Shown here: positions 39,107-50,100 of the stretch, piece after piece | Layout of the letters: each line of letters opens with the position of its first letter | Numbering within the stretch: the first letter of the stretch is position 1 | NCBI GenBank assembly: GCA_031269345.1 | Contig: JAISZH010000031.1 | Location: 370-64,369, forward strand | Length of the DNA stretch: 64,000 nt | Direction of reading: 5' to 3' | Source: Desulfovibrio sp. | Lineage (GTDB): Bacteria > Desulfobacterota > Desulfovibrionia > Desulfovibrionales > Desulfovibrionaceae | Position numbers and translations under genes: made by a program | The notes under the pieces: model-generated | Database searches by the model: none | The model's input: only the letters and a program-made list of their open reading frames with translations | Told to the model about the DNA's origin: nothing

Positions 39107-40033
39107 TTACGCCCGGGTCCGGTCAACTATGTGCTGGAAGGTCTCAGCCGCGCCCTGCCCCAGGCTTATGTCTCCCAATGGATAGTCCAGGCCGAGAAAG
39201 GCGTATTTTTGTGTGCCCAGACGGTGATAGGGCAAGGCTTCAAAACCTGCGTTGGCGTGCCTCGCCAGAAAAGCGCCCAAGGCTTTGGCGTTTTCTTCGG
39301 AATCGTTGAAGCCGGGTATGACGGGAGTGCGCACCAGCACAGGCAGATTTGGAAACTTGCAGAGCAGTTTGTTCAGGTTTTCGAGGATGCTTTCGTTGCC
39401 GACCCCGGTGCCTTCCTTGTGCTTCGCGCTGTCCATGTGCTTGACATCGTAAAGGATGGAAGACAGAAGACCTGCCGCTTCGTTCAGGATTTCCCAAGGA
39501 ACGTGACCGCATGTCTCAAGGGCCGTCCGGATTCTTCTTTTCCCGGCCTCGCGCAGCAGCGCCAAGGCAAATGACGGTTGGGCCAGGGGTTCTCCGCCGG
39601 AAAGGGTCATGCCGCCTCCGGACCGACTGTAGAAAACGGAATCCTGCTCCACGGATTCAATGATTTCAGCAACATTTTTCGTCTGGCCGTAAGTGATTAT
39701 CCCCTGCGAAGGGCAGACTGAAGCGCAGACTTGGGTCTCGCAGAACTTGCAGACGTTTCTGTCTATGAAAACACTTTTATCGGGGCCGGGCGAAACGGCA
39801 CTTTTGGGGCAGATGTCGAGGCAGCGCCGACATTTGTCCAAACCGAGGCAGCGGCCCTTGTTATACGCGGGTTGCGGCTTTGCCGATCTGGATTCCGGAT
39901 TGCTGCACCACAGACAGGACAAAGGACAGCCTTTGAGAAAGACTATGGTGCGGATGCCCGGACCGTCATGCACCGAATATTTCTGAACATTGAAAATAAC
40001 GCCGTTTGTCTTTCTGTCTTCAAACGAAGCCAT
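39107..40033 (-). CDS. islB: Glycyl-radical enzyme activating protein (radical SAM), probable IslB/IseH-type
   Basis: CPLSCLWCSNPE radical SAM cluster motif, an auxiliary ferredoxin-like Cys-rich insert (CLGLDKCRRCLDICP, CKFCETQVCASVCP) and a GGEP motif. It lies downstream of the GRE gene. Confidence 0.9.
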   Translation of the reverse strand: MASFEDRKTNGVIFNVQKYSVHDGPGIRTIVFLKGCPLSCLWCSNPESRSAKPQPAYNKGRCLGLDKCRRCLDICPKSAVSPGPDKSVFIDRNVCKFCETQVCASVCPSQGIITYGQTKNVAEIIESVEQDSVFYSRSGGGMTLSGGEPLAQPSFALALLREAGKRRIRTALETCGHVPWEILNEAAGLLSSILYDVKHMDSAKHKEGTGVGNESILENLNKLLCKFPNLPVLVRTPVIPGFNDSEENAKALGAFLARHANAGFEALPYHRLGTQKYAFLGLDYPLGDISLGQGAAETFQHIVDRTRA

Positions 40034-40475: not shown

Positions 40476-42974
40476 CTACATGGTTGCATGTCCCGTGCGT
40501 GCGATGAGGTCATTTTGCAGATCCGGGGAAAGATCTACGAAATAGGCGCTGTAGCCGGCTATGCGCACGATCAGGTTGCGGTATCTTTGGGGGTCCTTCT
40601 GCGCTTTGAGCAGGGTTTCCTTGTTGATGACATTGAATTGGATATGCCAGAGTTTCAAATCGCAGTATGTGCGGATGAATGAGACCAGTTTCTCCGTGCC
40701 CGCATCGCCCTCAAGGCATTTTGGCGTGAATTTGATGTTCAGCATGCGGGCCGCCCGATCACGGTAGCCGTAATTCTTCGTCTGGTAGTTGGACAGCAGA
40801 ATTGCGGTAGGGCCGTTGATGTCCGCGCCGTGCGAAGCTGAAGAGCCGTCAGAAAGCGGAAACCAGGACGTGCGCCCGTTAGGGGTCGCGGAAACAACCT
40901 TGCCGAAAGGTACGTGGGAGGTGAAGGGCACATAGCGCAAGTCGTTGTGGATGCCCAGTTCCGCGCTGTATTTTTTGGAGAACTCAAGAGATACGTGGTC
41001 CAGCTCATGGGCCACGGCATCGGAATAGGGGTCGTTGTTCCCGTAGCAGGGGGCGGAGCGCAGGATCTGCTGCACGTCCTCGTAGCCCTCGAAATTGTGC
41101 TCCAGCGCGTCCATGACCTGATCCATGGTCAATTTTTTGCTTTCAAAAACGATTTTTTTGAGGGCTGCAAGGGAATCAGTCACCGTCCCGTAGCCCATGA
41201 ACTCAAAGTAGCCCAGGTTGATGCCCTCGGGGATATGCTCCTGATGCAGGTCTATGCAGTGTTTCATGCACAGGTCGTGCATGGCCGAACCCATGGGCTG
41301 GGCGAAATGCCGGGCGCGTGTCTTGTTGACTATGTACTGCTGGGTGAAGGCGGCGCGCAGGAAAAGCAAATGCTGTTGCAGATAGGCGTTCCAGAGTTCC
41401 TCCCAGGTTTTGAATTGCCTGGCGTCGCCCGTGCGCAGGCCGAGCTGCGTATCGCCGTATTTTTTCATCTTGCCGTCGTAAAGCGCCATTTCCAGGGCCG
41501 CGGCGAAATTGATGTAGGCTCCGCCGGAGGTGTAGGTATCACGGTTGGGCATGCGCGCCTCCGTGCAGCCGGAAACGGCGTAGTCCAGAGCCTCTTCAAA
41601 AGTCGCGCCTTTGGAAACATAGAGCGGCACTACTTCCTCGTCATTGCAGAGTTTTGGAAAACCTGAGCCGTATTTGATGGTTTCGGCGACATCCCAGAGG
41701 AAGCGGTCAGGGGAACGGGAATGGATGCGTGCCGCCAGATCCGGGTAATGCAGCGGAAACTCGCGTTTGGATTTCAGGAAGAGGAGGGTCAGGTCATTGG
41801 TGGCGTCGCGCCCGTCCGGGGTTTGCCCGCCGACGGTTACGGCCTCCCAGTGGGCGTACCCTTCGTTAAAAGCGCCGCCGGCCGGGGAAATATACATGTC
41901 TATGAATTCTGCCATTCCCACCCACATGCATTCCAGCAGCTCCAGTGCCTTTTCCTCGGTGATGCGGCCTTCCTCCAGGTCTTTGGCATAGAAGGGGTAA
42001 AAATATTGGTCCATGCGGCCGTTGGAGATGGTGGTTCCGGTTTTCTGCTCCATGCGGGAGAACATCTGTGTGAACCACTGCGATTGCACGGCCTCATAGA
42101 AGGTGCGCGCCGGGTTGCCGGGCACATATTCGGCGTTTTCCGCCATAAGCAGCAGCTCGGCTTTGCGCGCCGGGTCTTTTTCCTTTGCGGCCGCCTTGCG
42201 GGCCGCCTGCGCGTGACGGCGGGCCCAGAGCACAACGGCCTCGCATACAAGGACCACCGCCTCCAGGAAGGGACGTTTGTCCACCTGATCGACGGGACTT
42301 GCGGGATCAAGAGCCGCGAGCTTTTCTTCCGCTTCTTTCCTGATGCCGTTAAAGCCGCGTTTCAATATCTTTTCGTAGTCGTGCACCCATTGGATGGAAG
42401 AGCGGAAACTGGACGTTTCGTTGACGATGAAACGGGAGATAAGCCCTTCCGGGTCATCGTACGTCAGCTTGTGCACTTCCGGCGGCAGGGCCGCATTGAG
42501 CGCTTCATGGTAGGTCTTGCCCTTCCAGAAGGGGGCGATGCGCCTGATAACGGTTTTCGCGTCTTCCGTGGTGATGGTTGCGGGCGAAGTAGTGCGTGTC
42601 GGCATATCTTCTACGGCCCTGTCCAGAAAGTCCCCATCCAGTTCCGGATAGAGGATGCCGTAGCGTCCGATGCAACCCGCGCGGCCGAGCAGCAACTGGT
42701 CGTCCTGCACGTAAACCGTGATGTTTTTCGCTATGTGCATCATGGCCTTGGCCCAGCGCAGCACCAGGGGCTGGCCCACTGTCTTTTCCATGGACTGGGT
42801 GAAATAAAGAGCCCGCTCAACGTCAATACGGGGTTTTTGTCCCTCAAAGCGTTCCACAAGCCTGAAAACCCGGCTGTGTTCGACGCGGAAGCGGTCTTCA
42901 ACTCCCGCCATCTGGTCCGTAAGACGCTTTTCCTGTGGGGAAAGGCATTCGCATTCGGTAAATTGCAATCTCAT
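40476..42974 (-). CDS. islA: Glycyl radical enzyme of the PFL2/1,2-eliminase clade, probable isethionate sulfite-lyase (IslA/IseG-like)
   Basis: C-terminal glycyl radical motif RIAGYSAYF, a thiyl loop SGCTEA (Cys-x-Glu), and PFL2-type blocks ([48 protein letters not shown]). The ATG at 42974 lies 6 nt behind GGAGG, giving 832 aa. The Arg191/Gln195/Cys470/Glu472/Arg680/Gly807 pattern is discussed in the findings. Confidence 0.85.
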
Positions 42975-43130
42975 CTTCATCCTCCGATCATTTTCCCCAG
43001 CCGCGCCAAACGCGGACGGAAGGTTACAGATATTTTTATGCAATCCGCTGAGCAACTCCCATGCCAGTTTCATTTATCCCACATATTCCGCGCGGTTTTC
43101 CGCCATGAAACGGCTTTCGGGGCATGTCAA

Positions 43131-43346: not shown

Positions 43347-44093
43347 CTACTCCAGGACGCCCCGCGCGGCAATGAGCAGGCCGATGACGAGGCAGAACCA
43401 GGTCACATATTTTTTCAGGCTGTCCAAAGGAAGGTTGTGCGCAACGCGCACCCCCAGCGCTACCCCGACCAGTTCGCAGACCGTCACCCACCAGACCAGG
43501 GGAAAGACGATGAAGCCGTTGCTGTAGTTGCTCAGCGAGCCCGCGGCCGAGACAAAGGATTGCAAGACCTGGGCGGTGCCTATGCAGGGCAGGACGGCGT
43601 ACCCGAAAAGCAGCATGACCGGGGTCGAGACAATGCCGCCGCCAGCCCCGGTCATGCCGCAGAGAAAGCCGGTGAACAGGCCGATACACATGAGCAGGAG
43701 AAAATTTCCCCGCGCGTCCAATCTGTCCGCAAAGCGCGCGCCTTTTGCCGGACGCAGGGAATAGAGGCTTGAGAGGATGACTATGCCTGCGAGCAACAGG
43801 GAAAGGGCCGGTGAGGAGAGGCGTGCGTTCACGGACGCCCCGGCATAGCTGCTTGCCAGACTTCCGACCAGTACCGGGACGGTCGTTTTCCAGTGGATGC
43901 TGCCATAGCGCTGGAAGATATAAGTGGCGATTATGCCGGTGAAAAAAAAGCTGAACAGGGCGGTGGCCATGGCCTGGTGCGTGGAAAGACCGCCAAAGAA
44001 CATGAGTGCGGGAATAAGCAGCACACCGCCGACTCCGCCGGCCCCGATGATGAAGCCTATGAACAGGGAGGACAGGGCCAGCGGCATGTACAT
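43347..44093 (-). CDS. TSUP-family membrane protein (TauE/SafE-type, putative sulfite/sulfonate anion exporter)
   Basis: 248-aa protein with ~8 TM helices, an internal two-fold repeat and Gly-rich motifs (GAGGVGGVLLIPAL, GMTGAGGGIVSTPVML). Confidence 0.8.
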   Translation of the reverse strand: MYMPLALSSLFIGFIIGAGGVGGVLLIPALMFFGGLSTHQAMATALFSFFFTGIIATYIFQRYGSIHWKTTVPVLVGSLASSYAGASVNARLSSPALSLLLAGIVILSSLYSLRPAKGARFADRLDARGNFLLLMCIGLFTGFLCGMTGAGGGIVSTPVMLLFGYAVLPCIGTAQVLQSFVSAAGSLSNYSNGFIVFPLVWWVTVCELVGVALGVRVAHNLPLDSLKKYVTWFCLVIGLLIAARGVLE

Positions 44094-44159: not shown

Positions 44160-45071
44160 TCATTGGAACGAACGGACATAAGGCACAAAGGGCAGAGGCG
44201 TTCCGATTACGGAAGAGTGCGGCTTGGCCGCGCGTGTTGCGGATTTGTCCAATATGCGGGCGGCGTTTTCGTACATGACCTTGCGCCGCACCGTGTCCGT
44301 CAGGTTCATCTTGTTGTAGATATCAATGGCTTCGGCCTGTTCCACAAAGGGATGCGCGCTGGCGAAGACGACCTTGTCGCTGATGGCGGTATTGAGCGCC
44401 TGCACGTAAAGCTCGCCCATGGGAGCAAGCTCGTACTCGGAGAGGTCCATGTAGACATTGGCGTTGCGCATGCAGGCAAAAATGGCTTCGTTCACGAACG
44501 GATAGCCGCCGTGGCTCATGATGATGGTCAGTTCCGGAAAATCCCTGGCCACTATGTCCACATGGCGCGGATCAACGTAGTCAATGACGGCGCGCGGCAC
44601 CTGAGGCGGCGGGGCCATGGTGATGAACACCGGCACGCCCAGTTCCGCGCATTTGGTATACACCGGATAGTAGCGCGCCTCATGCGGCGGGATATGGGCA
44701 AGGTAGGGGTCGGTGGCGATGCCGCGCATGCCGAATTTTTCCACAACGCGGTTGATCTCGTATACGGCCTTCATACCCTTGTGCGGATCTATGCCCCAGA
44801 AGCCCACGAAAATATCCGGGCGGGCGCGTGCGAATTCCAGCACACTGTCGTTGTTTGACGGGAAACAATAGGTGGTTTCGCAGTCGCGTCCGGTGATCAC
44901 CGCAAGTTCCACACCGCGTTTTTTCAAGCCTTCCACCACCTCAGGCAGAGATTGGGGGATTCGCCTGTCGAAATTGATGGCTTCGCAGGTGGCTTTGAAC
45001 ATGGAACTATTCTTGATGCCGTTAATTATTTCCGGGGTGTGGGGCCGGAAACGGAAATCAATGATTTTCAT
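44160..45071 (-). CDS. Amidohydrolase-2 (PF04909-like TIM barrel) fold protein lacking the N-terminal HxH metal motif
   Basis: MKIIDFRFRP.. occupies the position where this family normally has IDxHxH. Later blocks are typical (VFITMAPP, IIMSHGGYP, YENAARIL). It overlaps the upstream ATPase gene by 14 nt. Confidence 0.7.
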   Translation of the reverse strand: MKIIDFRFRPHTPEIINGIKNSSMFKATCEAINFDRRIPQSLPEVVEGLKKRGVELAVITGRDCETTYCFPSNNDSVLEFARARPDIFVGFWGIDPHKGMKAVYEINRVVEKFGMRGIATDPYLAHIPPHEARYYPVYTKCAELGVPVFITMAPPPQVPRAVIDYVDPRHVDIVARDFPELTIIMSHGGYPFVNEAIFACMRNANVYMDLSEYELAPMGELYVQALNTAISDKVVFASAHPFVEQAEAIDIYNKMNLTDTVRRKVMYENAARILDKSATRAAKPHSSVIGTPLPFVPYVRSFQ

Positions 45072-46002
45072 ATGCGCTCCCGGTGCGGGTCACTCTCTGT
45101 CCCTCCCCATCATCTTTGCCGGCCTTGGGTCTTGCCTGTTCCTCGCCCATTTTGGAGTATGCCTCCAGAAAGTCAGCCGCGTTGACAGCTCCGGCGGCGA
45201 AAGATTTCATGGCTTCCTCGTGCAGGAGTTCCAATGCCTCGCGTTTGATGTCCAGGTATTCCGGCGAGCCCATAACGGAAAATTCGCGCGGCCTGGGCAG
45301 GTCTACGTCCATGATTTTTTTGACGCGGCACGGATGATTGGTCAGGATTACCAAGCGATCGGCCAGGAATATTCCTTCTTCCAGTTCCGAGGTAACAAAC
45401 AGGTTTGTACCGCGATGCTCTTCAAAGAGGCGCACATAGTATTCCTGCATAAGCGAACGGGTCATGGCGTCCAGTCCTCTGAAGGGCTCGTCCATAAGCA
45501 TGACCTTGGGATGATTGATCATAGCCCGTACCAATTCCGCTCTGCGCTGCATGCCTCCAGAGAGCTGGGAGGGATATTTGCCCGCGAAGTCTTCAAGTCC
45601 CACCATTTTCAGCAACTGCATGGTGGTATCGGCCAGTTCCCTTCCGGACAATTCCTTGCGCACCCTTGGACCGTAACTGACGTTTTCGAAAGTGGTCATC
45701 CAGGGGAAAAGGGCTGTTTCCTGAAACACCACCAGACGGTCCGGCCCCGGACCGGTGACGGGTTCGCCGTCCAAGGAAACGCGTCCGGAAGTCGGTTTTT
45801 CATAGCCCGCCAGCACGTTGATCAGCGTACTTTTGCCGCAGCCGGACGGACCCACCAGCACGGTAAGCCTGCCCTTTTCCAGCGTAAAGGAGCAATCTTT
45901 GAGGACTTCCTTGGTCAGAACGTCTGCGCCGTAAGTTTTACAGACATTTTCCATGCTCATTTCGCCGGCGCGCTGTCCGGGGGTGAGTGTCGTCTTCATC
46001 AT
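45058..46002 (-). CDS. ABC transporter ATP-binding protein, NitT/TauT (SsuB/TauB-like) family, copy 2
   Basis: Walker A GPSGCGKST, signature LSGGMQRR, Walker B VMLMDEPF. The start could be 46002 or 45960. Confidence 0.9.
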   Translation of the reverse strand: MMKTTLTPGQRAGEMSMENVCKTYGADVLTKEVLKDCSFTLEKGRLTVLVGPSGCGKSTLINVLAGYEKPTSGRVSLDGEPVTGPGPDRLVVFQETALFPWMTTFENVSYGPRVRKELSGRELADTTMQLLKMVGLEDFAGKYPSQLSGGMQRRAELVRAMINHPKVMLMDEPFRGLDAMTRSLMQEYYVRLFEEHRGTNLFVTSELEEGIFLADRLVILTNHPCRVKKIMDVDLPRPREFSVMGSPEYLDIKREALELLHEEAMKSFAAGAVNAADFLEAYSKMGEEQARPKAGKDDGEGQRVTRTGSAYENH

Positions 46003-46049
46003 GCGTTTATTCCGTAAAAGTACATTTTACCGATGTATGCTTCTGACGA

Positions 46050-46850
46050 TCAGCGGGTCTTCAGCCAGGGGGTGAAACGGCTGCCTACCAAACGGATCAG
46101 TGCCGATGAAAAATATCCGGCGATCCCGATGCTCATCATGCCAACTACTATAAGGGGAAATTCGCCTGCCACGTAACCGCGCCAAGTCAGATAGCCAAGG
46201 CCCGTCTTGCTGGCGACCATTTCGGCCGCCACCACCACGGCCCAGGTGATGCCCATGCCCACGGTCATGCCCACCACAACGCTGGGCAGGCTGGCGGGAA
46301 GCAGAACTCGCCAAAAAATGTCACTCCGGCTGGAACCGAGCGAGTGTGCCGCCCTGATGTAACGCACGTCAATACTGGTGATGCCTTCCACAATGTTCAG
46401 CACCACGGTAAAGAAAGCGCCCAGAAAGGTCACGAAGATCATGCTCATTTCCGCCGAAGGCCAGAAAATGACGGATACAGGAACCCAGGCCAGCGGCGGC
46501 ACCGGCCGCATGATCTCGAAAATCGGGAAAAGAACTTCCCTTGCCCGGTCGTTGGCGCCCAGAAAAAGTCCCAGCGGCACTCCAATGATCTGGGCGATGA
46601 TGAAGCCGGTGAAAATCCGGATCATGCTGTCCTTCCAAGAGAGCCAATAATAGGTATTATGGAGTTGGACGGCCAGGGTGGACACGACTTCCGAGGGAGC
46701 GGGCACATTGCCGATGATCGGCGCCTTCAGATACGTACACAATTCCCAGAGCAAGGTGAAGACCGTCAAAGAAAATATGCCGCGCCAGAAGGTCCGGGAA
46801 CGCGTCCTATTTTTTATTCCGGCAAGCGCCCGGGATATCCTGTCGTTCAC
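46050..46850 (-). CDS. ABC transporter permease, NitT/TauT (SsuC/TauC-like) family, copy 2
   Basis: BPD-type permease with the EAA-like loop IRAAHSLGSSRSDIFWRVLLP. The GTG at 46850 sits behind a GGAGAT RBS. The longer ORF would overlap the upstream ATPase gene. Confidence 0.85.
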   Translation of the reverse strand: MNDRISRALAGIKNRTRSRTFWRGIFSLTVFTLLWELCTYLKAPIIGNVPAPSEVVSTLAVQLHNTYYWLSWKDSMIRIFTGFIIAQIIGVPLGLFLGANDRAREVLFPIFEIMRPVPPLAWVPVSVIFWPSAEMSMIFVTFLGAFFTVVLNIVEGITSIDVRYIRAAHSLGSSRSDIFWRVLLPASLPSVVVGMTVGMGITWAVVVAAEMVASKTGLGYLTWRGYVAGEFPLIVVGMMSIGIAGYFSSALIRLVGSRFTPWLKTR

Positions 46851-46860
46851 TTTATATCTC

Positions 46861-47715
46861 CTACATTTCCCGCTCGCCGGCTTTGAAGGCTTTGACCGCT
46901 TCCTCGTGTACCGCCGCAATGCATTCGGTTCTAAGCCTCTGGTAGGCCGTAGACGCCAGGACGCGAAAATCACGCGGGCGGGGGATGTCAACGGAGAGCA
47001 CCTTTTTTATGGTGGCGGGTCTGGTGGTCATTATATAGACCTTGCTTCCGAGGAAAATTGCCTCGTCGAGATCGTGCGTGATGAAGAACACCGTTGTTTT
47101 GTTCCTGTCGTAAACGTCAAGCAAAAACTGATGCACCACGGTCTTTGTAAGCGCGTCCATGGCCCTGAAGGGCTCGTCGAGCAAAAGCACGCGCGGGTCG
47201 TTCATCATGGCCCTGGCGATTTCCACCCGGCGGCGCATGCCCGAGGAAATCTCGCTCGGATAGTTGTGGGCTATGCCTTTAAGACCCATCTGGCCCATCA
47301 TGTGCAAGGCCTTTTCTTCCGCATCTTTTTTGGATGCGGCCCCCTGCATCACCGGGCCGAAGGTTATGTTCTCAAGCACCGTGAACCAGGGAAAGAGCGC
47401 TCCGTTTTGAAAGACCACGATACGATCCGAGCCGGGCTTGGGCACCTGGGAACTGTTGCAGAGCAGTTCACCATCAAGATGAATTTCGCCCGCGCTGATG
47501 CCGTGGAATCCGGCAATGGCGTTAAGAAGCGTGGTTTTGCCGCAGCCTGAGGGGCCGACTATAACACAGAATTCGCCCGCCTCAATTTCCATGGAACAGT
47601 CGTCCACGGCAAGCACCCGCGCCCCGTCAGGGTCGTATATCTTGCTGACGGCGCGTATGCTTATGGCTCCACGGGGCGTTTTCCCCCCGCCGTTTTCAAC
47701 AGACACAGCGCTCAT
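46861..47715 (-). CDS. ABC transporter ATP-binding protein, NitT/TauT family, copy 1
   Basis: Walker A GPSGCGKTT, signature ISSGMRRR, Walker B VLLLDEPF. Confidence 0.9.
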   Translation of the reverse strand: MSAVSVENGGGKTPRGAISIRAVSKIYDPDGARVLAVDDCSMEIEAGEFCVIVGPSGCGKTTLLNAIAGFHGISAGEIHLDGELLCNSSQVPKPGSDRIVVFQNGALFPWFTVLENITFGPVMQGAASKKDAEEKALHMMGQMGLKGIAHNYPSEISSGMRRRVEIARAMMNDPRVLLLDEPFRAMDALTKTVVHQFLLDVYDRNKTTVFFITHDLDEAIFLGSKVYIMTTRPATIKKVLSVDIPRPRDFRVLASTAYQRLRTECIAAVHEEAVKAFKAGEREM

Positions 47716-48614
47716 TATGCGACCTCCCTAACCTTCCACTGCATGAGTTTGTCCCCGACCAGCCGGATAATGAGGCTGCTCAGAGAACCTATCACGCCCA
47801 GGGTGATCATGGCGATGATGATGACCGGATATTGCACCAGTGTGTAAGAGTTCCAGATAAGGTAGCCGAGGCCGAATTCCCCGGCCAGCATTTCGCCGGC
47901 CACGAGGGAAAACCATGCGTAGCCCATGCTTATTTGCAGACCTGTGAAGATGAAGGGAAGCGAGCCGGGGACGATGACCTTATAAAAAATTTGTTTCTCC
48001 GAGGCGCCAAGGGACGCAGCCGCCCTAAAATACGCCTCGTCTATGGATTCGACGCCCAGAAGCGTGTTTAAGACAGTAGCGAAGAAGGAGCCGAGGAAGG
48101 TCAGGAAAATGATGGAGGCCTCGCGCCCCGGCCACATGAGGATGGACAGCGGCACCCACGCGAGCATGGGGATGGGGCGCAGAACTTCAAGAAGGGGGAA
48201 AGTGTAATCCTTGAAGGTCGCTTTCCAGCCCATGAACAGCCCGATCGGAACTCCCAGAGCCGTAGCCAGCATAAAGGCCTGGAAAACACGCCAGGTACTT
48301 ATGCCGATGTGCTGGTAATATTCCATGGTGTAGAAGGAAATGCCGTAGAGCGGGTCGGCAGAGAGCCATTCGGTGAAAGTGGCTTTTGGACCGGGGAGTT
48401 TGTTGAAGAGCGGCAGGTTGAAAACCTCGGTTGTGACGTACCAGACCGCTACGAAACCGCATAGTCCGAGCAGGTTCAGGTAGGGCGAGGGGCTTCCAAG
48501 CCAGTGCTTCATCCTGGTCCAGGTCTGGGCGACTGAACTTAACTGTGTGCCGGGATTGTCCGGAGTCTCGAAGGGCACGCTGTTCTCCTTGCCGGATGAG
48601 TAGACGTCAGGCAT
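47715..48614 (-). CDS. ABC transporter permease, NitT/TauT family, copy 1
   Basis: BPD-type permease with the EAA-like loop FRAAASLGASEKQIFYKVIVP. Its stop overlaps the next gene's start by 1 nt. Confidence 0.88.
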   Translation of the reverse strand: MPDVYSSGKENSVPFETPDNPGTQLSSVAQTWTRMKHWLGSPSPYLNLLGLCGFVAVWYVTTEVFNLPLFNKLPGPKATFTEWLSADPLYGISFYTMEYYQHIGISTWRVFQAFMLATALGVPIGLFMGWKATFKDYTFPLLEVLRPIPMLAWVPLSILMWPGREASIIFLTFLGSFFATVLNTLLGVESIDEAYFRAAASLGASEKQIFYKVIVPGSLPFIFTGLQISMGYAWFSLVAGEMLAGEFGLGYLIWNSYTLVQYPVIIIAMITLGVIGSLSSLIIRLVGDKLMQWKVREVA

Positions 48615-48665
48615 GGGCGAGCCAGGATCATCCGCGCGGACGATCCTGGCTTTTATCTGGAACCG

Positions 48666-49784
48666 TTAATCGCTGAAGGGGCACTGCGCCGGGAGCATTC
48701 CCTTGATATAGCCGAGCGTGGCCTTTTCGTCCACCGGCGTGTAGCCGGCTTCCTTGAATATCGCGCGGGCCAGGCTGTCGTCCACCACCCAGTCTTTCAG
48801 GGCGGGAACGGCGATGACTTTTTCCTGGTGCAGGAAGGGAGCGACGGCTTTGATGTTGTCCAGTTCGCGTTTGTTGAAATAATATGATTTCCACTCACGC
48901 ACGGGATCAGCGCTGGTGGACGGCACCTTGCCGTAAATGGAGTACCAGAGCACGCGCTTGGAAATGCCGGAAGCGTGCTTTGCCACCATCTCCACCACCT
49001 GCTTCTGGTTGGCCGGATCGAGCAGGAAGCGCTGGGCTTCCAGTTCCGAACGGAGGTAGGCTTTGGCGGCATCCGGGTTGTCTTTGATGAAGTCGTTGCG
49101 CATGACCAGGATGCCGAGGTCCGGGTTGTCGCAGGCGCTTCCATCCGCCACGATGCGTACGCTGCCGTCGCCAACATCTGTTGCTATGCGCGAGACTGTG
49201 GGCTCCCAGGCGGAAGCCGCGTCAAGTTTGCCGCTGCGGAAGTTGGTGGCAATGACCTCAATGGATTGATTCAGATATTCTTTGGGTTTTACCTGATAGC
49301 GCTCGAAAAAACGGCGCAGGTACTGGTCGGAGGCGCTGCCTTTGGGTGCGGCTATGACCTTGTTGTTAAGCCATTTCGCGACATCCTCGTTGCTTTTGAA
49401 TTCGGGCGCGTCTTTACGCACCAGGACCAAAGAACAACGCGTGCCTTCGGACATGCCGAGCGAGGCCACCATTTTGATCTCCGCCTGTTGATCCTTGGAG
49501 CAGAGTATCGTCGCGGGCATCACGCTCATATAACCAGCGACCGCTTTGCCGGCGAGCATGTTGTTGGCCACGATAGTGCCTTGTAAGGCGGGCGCGAATT
49601 CAAATTCCACATCCTTGGGCGCGTATTTCTTCCAGAGACCGAGTTCAGCGTTGACGATCACCTGATAGGAAATCGTGTCGTAGGGCTGGTAGCCGATGGT
49701 GAAGGTGCGGGCGGCGTTGGCTCCTGTCGCCGCGCTCATGACGAAAATGAAAAGCGCGCAAAAAATGCTGCAAAAACCTTTCAT
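48666..49784 (-). CDS. Periplasmic substrate-binding protein, NMT1/SsuA/TauA-like
   Basis: The ATG at 49784 lies 8 nt behind GGAGG, followed by the signal peptide MKGFCSIFCALFIFVMSAATGANA and a TauA/SsuA-type fold (FTIGYQPYD.., AAPKGSASD.., AASAWEP). Confidence 0.85.
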   Translation of the reverse strand: MKGFCSIFCALFIFVMSAATGANAARTFTIGYQPYDTISYQVIVNAELGLWKKYAPKDVEFEFAPALQGTIVANNMLAGKAVAGYMSVMPATILCSKDQQAEIKMVASLGMSEGTRCSLVLVRKDAPEFKSNEDVAKWLNNKVIAAPKGSASDQYLRRFFERYQVKPKEYLNQSIEVIATNFRSGKLDAASAWEPTVSRIATDVGDGSVRIVADGSACDNPDLGILVMRNDFIKDNPDAAKAYLRSELEAQRFLLDPANQKQVVEMVAKHASGISKRVLWYSIYGKVPSTSADPVREWKSYYFNKRELDNIKAVAPFLHQEKVIAVPALKDWVVDDSLARAIFKEAGYTPVDEKATLGYIKGMLPAQCPFSD

Positions 49785-49936
49785 ACGATAACCTCCATAT
49801 GTTGTGGTGCCGGACATGGCAGAAAACGCTTTCGCGACGTCTCTATTTCCGCATTCGTCGTTCCGGTTGGGAAGGCCGGGTTGAGAACACTCCGCCTTTC
49901 TTATTACAAAATTTTGCTCGAAGTAAAATAATTTTT

Positions 49937-50100
49937 CCGGATAACCATATAAAAGTTGAAGATACGGACTTCCGCACGGAAATCTGAACGGCAGCCGCCA
50001 GACCGCTGCCGGCGCGAAGCGGCGCAAGTCGGCCGAAAATCGCGTTTTCGGCCGACGACCTCCGCAAGGAAAAGTTTACTTTTCAATACGGATATCAGTG
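49937..50100 (+). repeat. Repeat family D, copy D2
   Basis: See D1. Same orientation as D1. Confidence 0.85.

Follow-up and report, generated by a model that had tools for sequence, protein, structure and literature searches.

Within a 64,000-nt stretch of Desulfovibrio sp. DNA (the whole of which is called the window here), we analyzed the gene at 44160-45071, whose product we named AH2. It was found to be an amidohydrolase-fold protein without the metal site of its family, which very probably serves as a dedicated accessory of gene modules built around sulfite-releasing glycyl radical enzymes (GREs). The gene is the sixth of nine on the same (minus) strand, and its first 14 nt are shared with the end of the ABC ATPase gene upstream. 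The features of the gene and of its neighborhood were located as follows:

44160..45071, minus strand: AH2 gene, encoding a PF04909 barrel protein of 303 aa without metal site (open reading frame (ORF), Pfam, AlphaFold2, 3IRS match)
45042..45059, minus strand: DFRFRP, residues 5-10, with R7 and R9 at the HxH positions after beta-1 (alignments)
44619..44621, minus strand: T151 at the position of the metal-binding His of beta-5 (profile alignment to structures)
44505..44516, minus strand: SHGG, residues 186-189, with H187 as the one retained canonical active-site His, invariant (alignments)
44346..44366, minus strand: FASAHPF, residues 236-242, with A239 at the position of the metal-binding Asp of beta-8 (profile alignment)
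44163..44246, minus strand: C-terminal tail, residues 276-303, of low model confidence, with PLPFVPY at 44178-44198 (AlphaFold2 model, orthologue comparison)
45058..50027, minus strand: ABC importer genes upstream of AH2 (neighbor annotation), consisting of the five entries below
48666-50027, minus strand: NMT1-type binding protein of the importer
47715-48614, minus strand: permease of the importer
46861-47715, minus strand: ATPase of the importer
46050-46991, minus strand: permease of the importer
45058-46002, minus strand: ATPase of the importer, overlapping AH2
43347..44093, minus strand: TauE/SafE (TSUP) family permease, directly downstream of AH2
40476..43073, minus strand: isethionate sulfite-lyase IslA, the GRE (1583 bits to 7KQ3)
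39107..40033, minus strand: GRE-activating radical SAM enzyme IslB

A Pfam search with AH2 resulted in a match to PF04909 (Amidohydro_2; E 4.9e-35, 122 bits at a cut-off of 26.4), and the AlphaFold2 model (mean pLDDT 92) revealed eight strand/helix repeats forming a (beta/alpha)8 barrel, so that the score above the curated cut-off and the fold both place AH2 in this family. The Pfam alignment begins at profile position 65, leaving positions 1-64, which include the HxH part, unaligned. Foldseek analysis with the model matched structures of the family, among which 3IRS ranked best. No NCBIfam model matched AH2, its ESM Atlas annotation is merely 'amidohydrolase family protein', and the genome of the window carries it in a single copy.

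The initial annotation had noted that the HxH metal motif is replaced in the N-terminus (MKIIDFRFRPH) and that the Asp of the usual fGSDxP is lost in FASAHPF. Both observations were borne out by an alignment of AH2 with 34 relatives (28-96% identity), in which P0159, a relative with canonical IDLHVHP and FGTDYP, matched R7 and R9 with its two His and A239 with its Asp. In the comparison of this alignment profile with solved structures, T151 came to lie opposite the beta-5 His of LigW and 3NUR, and A239 opposite the beta-8 Asp of LigW, gamma-resorcylate decarboxylase, and 3NUR. The loss of the ligands thus holds in register, a point for which the initial annotation had proposed a profile alignment. 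Gamma-resorcylate and 2,3-dihydroxybenzoate decarboxylases, LigW, ACMSD, and the LigJ hydratase have the same barrel as AH2 (Foldseek probability 1.0, TM c. 0.6-0.67) and share with it the conserved beta-6 His, which is H187 of SHGG. While canonical PF04909 enzymes hold Zn or Mn by (E/H)xH of beta-1, the His of beta-5, and the Asp of beta-8, these positions read R, R, T, and A in AH2, so that of the residues typical of metal-dependent members (HxH or ExH in beta-1) only the beta-6 His is left.

In the alignment with the 34 relatives, neither D5 nor H187 is ever exchanged, and at least 90% of the sequences have R7, R9, and P10; below about 35% identity, the beta-1 motif varies between HxH, RxR, RxV, and CxT. 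Among 63 AH2 copies linked to a GRE gene, D5, R7, R9, P10, R62, D63, D95, H187, S238, and A239 were identical throughout, and the set of invariant or nearly invariant residues comprised D5, R7, R9, R62, D63, Y68, N74, D95, H97, D121, Y138, H187, E195, S211, E214, S238, and A239. Since R7, R9, and A239 belong to the residues invariant in all 63 copies, the loss of the ligands is not a chance event. According to the model, most of the conserved polar residues would directly follow predicted beta-strands, i.e., the usual place of an active site in barrel enzymes. Only seven positions separate the AH2s linked to isethionate sulfite-lyases (Isl) from those linked to 2,3-dihydroxypropane-1-sulfonate (DHPS) sulfite-lyases (Hps). 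Two of the exchanges, I118A and A153G beside strands 4 and 5, lead to smaller residues in the Hps-linked proteins; as the substrate and product of the GRE are larger there, we counted this in favor of catalysis. The initial annotation had left the choice between a metal-independent enzyme and a non-catalytic role. With R, R, T, and A at the four canonical ligand positions and the register confirmed, the sequence is sensibly taken to have an active site that is metal-independent or non-canonical, whereas a purely non-catalytic role is disfavored by the invariant polar residues just behind the predicted strands.

Based on alignments with 3IRS and the 34 relatives, AH2 was grouped into an informal subfamily, here called BB4693-like, with D-x-R-x-R-P following beta-1, G-R-(D/N) following beta-2, S-H-G following beta-6, and F-x-S/T-A-x-P at beta-8. 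Its namesake BB4693 from Bordetella bronchiseptica (PDB 3IRS/3K4W) matched AH2 over the full length (E 5e-29 in the single-sequence search and 2e-73 in the profile search) and was also the best structural match of the model (TM 0.76-0.82). BB4693 starts with IIDFRLRP, has SHG, and shows AYP in place of the Asp. Thus, both proteins share IIDFRxRP, GR(D/N), SHG, and F-x-(S/T)-A-x-P and lack HxH as well as the beta-8 Asp, though their identity is low (26% in the structural alignment) and BB4693 has no C-terminal tail. A literature search on BB4693, 3IRS, and 3K4W, deposited as an 'uncharacterized TIM-barrel protein', revealed no paper and no function. The textbook metal-independent member of the amidohydrolase superfamily is LigI, a 2-pyrone-4,6-dicarboxylate lactonase, which keeps His and Asp residues yet binds no metal and belongs to a separate branch (COG3618). 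It provides a precedent for metal-free acid/base catalysis on an anionic substrate in this fold, but was absent from the listed sequence and fold matches of AH2.

The speculation of the initial annotation that R7 and R9 are sulfonate ligands, as suggested by the operon, could not be upheld, since D-x-R-x-R-P is a trait of the subfamily and RxR also occurs in loci related neither to sulfonates nor to GREs. Among 12 relatives from other Desulfobacterota (c. 28-34% identity), none had a GRE gene nearby, and one of them (L171) carries DFRVR with genes for an acyl-CoA ligase, an amino-acid permease, and a TetR regulator as neighbors. Bilophila wadsworthia ATCC 49260 harbors at least nine full-length relatives of AH2, and at least five RxR paralogues of this strain (L095, L096, L097) adjoin TAXI-TRAP transporters, sigma-54 regulators, an MFS gene, and flavin reductases of the old yellow enzyme (OYE) type; the latter have 650-680 aa and combine OYE and pyridine-nucleotide-disulfide parts. 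Judged by these sequences, a general anion site for a carboxylate or a sulfonate at the arginines is plausible. Of the co-occurrence of the motif with GREs or TauT-type transporters that the initial annotation had wished to see surveyed, one part was found, as the AH2 clade is tied to sulfite-releasing GREs; the motif itself, however, is also present in sulfonate-unrelated loci, which that annotation had named as refuting its idea.

An orthologue scan of species genomes resulted in 80 AH2 loci (63-96% identity) from Desulfovibrionaceae and Desulfobotulus, including Bilophila wadsworthia and D. piger. An IslA gene was visible in 58 of them, several of the remaining loci being short contigs. The gene order varied (DctP-DctQM-AH2, AH2-MFS, IslA-IslB-AH2, AH2 divergent from IslA, and ABC-AH2 as in the window); most often, AH2 directly followed the genes of a TRAP, MFS, or ABC importer, and TauE-family genes were often adjacent. 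When 151 Desulfovibrionaceae genomes were searched with each protein, an IslA-like GRE was detected in 48, AH2 in 46, and both in 45; as these genomes are kin, the counts are descriptive and carry no statistical test. The GRE occurred without AH2 in G436, G475, and the fragmentary G534, and AH2 without the GRE in G540. The G436 locus (L121, contig C26), from the genus of the window, encodes a GRE 63% identical to IslA together with an amino-acid permease, an SDR, a sigma-54 regulator, and a class-III aminotransferase, which may make up a pathway for some amino-sulfonate beyond those already known.

The linkage extends beyond IslA. One AH2 of Bilophila ATCC 49260, 50% identical to the protein of the window, is encoded divergently beside a GRE identical to PDB 6LON, which is the DHPS sulfite-lyase HpsG (PMC13450708), and another relative in this strain was located with DctPQM, a sigma-54 regulator, and an IslB-like activase. 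Twenty further loci encode GREs 57-75% identical to IslA, each with AH2, an activase, a transporter, and a sigma-54 regulator. Across 63 locus pairs, the identity of AH2 falls with that of the GRE, from 100/100 to 40/57 (Mantel r 0.83; none of 2000 permutations reached this value). The GRE-linked AH2s form one clade compared with other members of the subfamily, and the trees of AH2 and the GRE are broadly congruent. What holds is that modules of GRE and AH2 have been duplicated as a whole and have diverged in concert. Two loci (L104, L119; G175:C32, G461:C27) were also seen to carry two to four IslA-family GREs per contig (75, 58, 46, and 37% identity) with separate activases. Two AH2 genes looked broken, namely L112 3153-4096 (G484) and G478:C10:55475-56368; one of them is split (235 + 80 aa), while the other is interrupted by two in-frame TAA codons, although the GRE next to it is intact.

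Further differences among the AH2s were detected at their termini. At the C-terminus, 40 orthologues carry a tail of 27-38 residues, which the other 45 lack. Using PduS, a tandem BMC protein, a PduO-like protein, Pta, and aldehyde dehydrogenase as markers for a bacterial microcompartment (BMC) and requiring at least two marker genes per locus, we assigned BMC loci to 31 of the 40 tailed and to none of the 45 tail-less AH2s. The nine tailed exceptions comprise six on short contigs, the window and its 96% twin, and L113. Most tails end with P(L/M)P(F/Y)xP(F/Y), PLPFVPY in the window; among all ORFs of these loci, this motif occurred in 35 AH2s and one other ORF. Tails of the type present in the window were confined to orthologues from lineages that have BMC genes. 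A second type ends with DMVAxIVREVLARL, a near-copy of the N-terminal IVREVLSRL of a BMC aldehyde dehydrogenase (L038). The third, from a low-GC metagenome lineage, consists of an N-terminal amphipathic stretch followed by an Ala/Pro/Lys linker, and its AH2 gene lies at the end of a BMC locus with genes for PduV, aldehyde dehydrogenase, BMC shell, PduL, a protein with an MreB/FtsA/Hsp70 actin-like match, and PduS. Relatives of this low-GC AH2 (45-58% identity) were found under names from Desulfosporosinus, Desulforamulus, Desulfitispora, Clostridia, Pseudodesulfovibrio, and Desulfoplanes.

Three unrelated extensions in three BMC lineages argue that AH2 works in or on the compartment; for the tail of the window, the sequences indicate an association only. 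In the genome of the window, a locus on another contig (L130, C88, 7321-11323) carries isethionate-BMC-type genes for PduS, tandem BMC, and Pta, resembling the PduS-BMC-Pta set after AH2 in the relatives L005 and L009, and the contig ends at PduS. A second BMC locus (L129, C103) of this genome encodes shell proteins and an aldehyde dehydrogenase. Either the isethionate and BMC genes do not form one cluster in this lineage, or the assembly is broken there.

The orthologue group of AH2 includes two genes from the literature, DVU2820 of D. vulgaris Hildenborough and HMPREF0179_00649 of B. wadsworthia 3.1.6; the orthologue in Bilophila ATCC 49260 (L030) is 70% identical to the protein of the window. 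DVU2820 was named 'amidohydrolase family protein' and was predicted by Kazakov et al. (2015) to belong to the sigma-54 regulon of DVU2827 together with the GRE operon DVU2822-2825, which was taken for a pyruvate formate-lyase operon at that time (PMC4641369). Burrichter et al. (2021) listed HMPREF0179_00649 as 'hypothetical protein, predicted amidohydrolase' and as the last gene of the IslAB-BMC cluster (PMC8667426). In contrast to these two genes, AH2 of the window lies behind an ABC importer and not behind TRAP or BMC genes. Neither of the two papers mentions the lost metal site, the tail, or a role for DVU2820 or 00649, and 00649 is not mentioned in the proteomics text and supplements of Burrichter et al. 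that we checked. Neither Peck et al. (2019) nor Xing et al. (2019) mentions AH2, nor does a GRE review from 2026, and the supplements of Peck et al. contain nothing on the neighbor gene in strain G20. Thus, the co-localization of AH2 with the GRE is already on record, whereas the literature searched contains nothing on the lost metal site, the co-divergence, or the tails; no paper was found that assigns a function to AH2.

Altogether, we consider it very likely that AH2 is a PF04909 barrel of the BB4693 branch without metal site and a dedicated, co-diverged accessory of sulfite-releasing GRE modules, which consist of IslA, IslB, the ABC importer, and TauE in the window, with the extension in BMC lineages most likely placing it in or on the compartment.

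As to the reaction, every characterized partner GRE releases sulfite and a carbonyl compound (PMC13450708), namely acetaldehyde in the case of IslA and hydroxyacetone in the case of HpsG, and aldehyde-bisulfite adducts are stable enough to serve as a storage form of sulfoacetaldehyde (PMC6453916). Given this release, the probable packaging in BMCs, the divergence by subclass, and an equipment of arginines, His, and Asp without metal, the breakdown of such an adduct is the simplest reaction that fits. We therefore tentatively propose that AH2 may be a metal-free lyase for the bisulfite adduct of the two products of IslA, which we infer ourselves and regard as possible, though with more doubt than confidence. 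As a general acid/base enzyme independent of metal, AH2 would hold the sulfonate group with the arginine cluster R7, R9, and R62, while H187 and the surrounding acidic residues D5, D63, D95, and D121 would deprotonate the hydroxyl. The substrate would be 1-hydroxyethanesulfonate, the spontaneous acetaldehyde-bisulfite adduct and an isomer of isethionate. Its cleavage to acetaldehyde and sulfite would set free carbon and electron acceptor and would also clear a likely look-alike inhibitor of IslA. In its widest form, this proposal would make AH2 a new kind of enzyme, a metal-free alpha-hydroxysulfonate (carbonyl-bisulfite adduct) lyase that has co-evolved with the GRE, is packaged in BMCs, and keeps the two GRE products from being tied up with each other in an isomer of the substrate; we hold this form with still less confidence.

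Several points weigh against these interpretations. The adduct lyase is a construction of our own, reached by inference. The clustering of the conserved residues is read only from strand positions in the predicted model, and shared descent by itself would lead one to expect some co-divergence between linked genes. The tail of the AH2 in the window is proline-rich and unstructured in the model and does not form a canonical amphipathic encapsulation peptide; canonical-looking amphipathic extensions occur in sister lineages. Ketone-bisulfite adducts such as that of hydroxyacetone are much weaker than aldehyde adducts, which makes the need for AH2 beside HpsG less obvious. Moreover, in three genomes with an IslA-like GRE, no AH2 was found. 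In assays of IslA and IseG in vitro, acetaldehyde and sulfite were detected without AH2 (PMC6386719, PMC6453916). From this turnover and the three GRE-only genomes it follows that AH2 is not indispensable for GRE catalysis. The components that D. alaskensis G20 requires according to Peck et al. (2019) are the GRE, its activase, the transporter, and the regulator; the AH2 gene is not mentioned there.

The position of AH2, most often directly behind importer genes, its co-divergence with the substrate class of the GRE, and the location of distant paralogues beside transporters would also suit a role on the substrate side. In this case, AH2 would bind or condition the imported hydroxy-sulfonate (isethionate, or DHPS for the HpsG-linked proteins) and hand it to the GRE or the BMC, or would convert an unrecognized precursor. 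We consider this rather unlikely, as the TRAP binding protein takes isethionate itself with a Kd of 0.5 uM (PMC6453916), IslA uses isethionate directly so that no conversion step is missing, and a carrier would have no obvious need for the invariant set of His and Asp. For the same reasons, i.e., binding of isethionate itself by the TRAP protein and an IslA that needs no converted precursor, AH2 was rejected as the enzyme of a missing step before IslA.

About as improbable is a role in which AH2 would act through protein-protein contact with the GRE and catalyze little or nothing itself, for instance as an adaptor that recruits IslA to the BMC shell, or as a stabilizer or protector of the radical enzyme. 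Co-divergence with the GRE, the lost metal site, and the occurrence of three different terminal extensions exactly in BMC lineages would be expected of such a partner. On the other hand, tail-less AH2s are equally conserved in many non-BMC lineages, so that the core function is not encapsulation, and the catalytic-type positions are the most conserved residues. Besides, the IslA and HpsG loci retrieved hold AH2, while the GRE review describes no such accessory for other GRE classes (PMC13450708).

Sulfite handling, in which AH2 would bind free sulfite and pass it to DsrAB, out of the BMC, or to TauE, or would shield cofactors from it, has a small chance of being correct. Though the restriction of the AH2 clade to sulfite-releasing GRE modules, the frequent adjacency of TauE-family genes, and an arginine cluster suited to a small oxyanion point in this direction, sulfite is identical for IslA and HpsG, so that the co-divergence by subclass and the exchanges I118A and A153G would be unexpected, and the RxR motif predates the association with sulfonates.

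It is very unlikely that AH2 is a metal-dependent PF04909 hydrolase or decarboxylase of the ordinary kind, with its metal bound by other residues and with a carboxylated or esterified sulfonate as substrate: acidic residues and H187 remain and the closest structures of known function are decarboxylases and hydratases, but throughout the clade the four ligand positions are occupied by R, R, T, and A, and no hydrolysis or decarboxylation step is known between uptake and IslA (PMC6386719, PMC6453916). AH2 can hardly be a passenger gene without a role in the pathway, since, despite published pathway reconstitutions that do without it, both genes occur in 45 of the 49 genomes with either, the linkage outlasts many rearrangements, paralogous modules each keep their own AH2, and the predicted regulon is common with the GRE operon.

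A taurine-conjugate or bile-salt amidase was also considered and rejected. The metal-dependent bile salt hydrolases of Bilophila are secreted PF07969 proteins of c. 100 kDa with intact metal sites, described in two 2026 preprints, whose Amidohydro_3 domain holds five metal ligands as well as a carboxylated Lys, and AH2 revealed no match to PF07969.

By cleaving isethionate or DHPS, IslA and HpsG provide the route of Bilophila and Desulfovibrio from taurine- and sulfoquinovose-derived sulfonates to hydrogen sulfide in the gut, and these enzymes are under study as targets for drugs. A transporter, the GRE, its activase, an aldehyde dehydrogenase, and a regulator are considered to make up the whole pathway; AH2 would be a sixth gene, present in 45 of the 48 genomes with an IslA-like GRE. 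If it removes adducts or conditions the reaction in another way, flux in vivo and inhibitor design would depend on it. Such a role would also provide the BB4693 branch of PF04909, for which a structure has been solved since 2009, with a function, and would clearly exemplify the rebuilding of an amidohydrolase barrel with arginines instead of a metal.

Regarding the other genes in the neighborhood, the importer consists of two diverged permeases (c. 35% identical), two diverged ATPases (c. 41%), and one binding protein, a layout that is also found in the relatives L005, L009, L017, L020, L117, and L118. As orthologues of IslA align only from about residue 33-40, its true start probably lies c. 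30-40 codons downstream of the first ATG. A sigma-54-like sequence, TGGCAT-N5-TTGCT, was identified at 43051-43066 (minus strand) inside the first codons of the longest IslA ORF, so that IslA probably has its own predicted sigma-54 promoter. A scan for such promoters across the window resulted in 3 matches compared with 2.9 expected, which is not above chance, and no gene for a sigma-54 activator of the IslR kind or any other was found in the 64 kb, unlike in most related loci. Finally, a region beside the low-GC BMC locus (L136 11686-14778, minus strand) encodes an MFS transporter and a PF07969 amidohydrolase of 553 aa, which corresponds in family and size class to the short Bilophila homologues of metal-dependent bile salt hydrolases.

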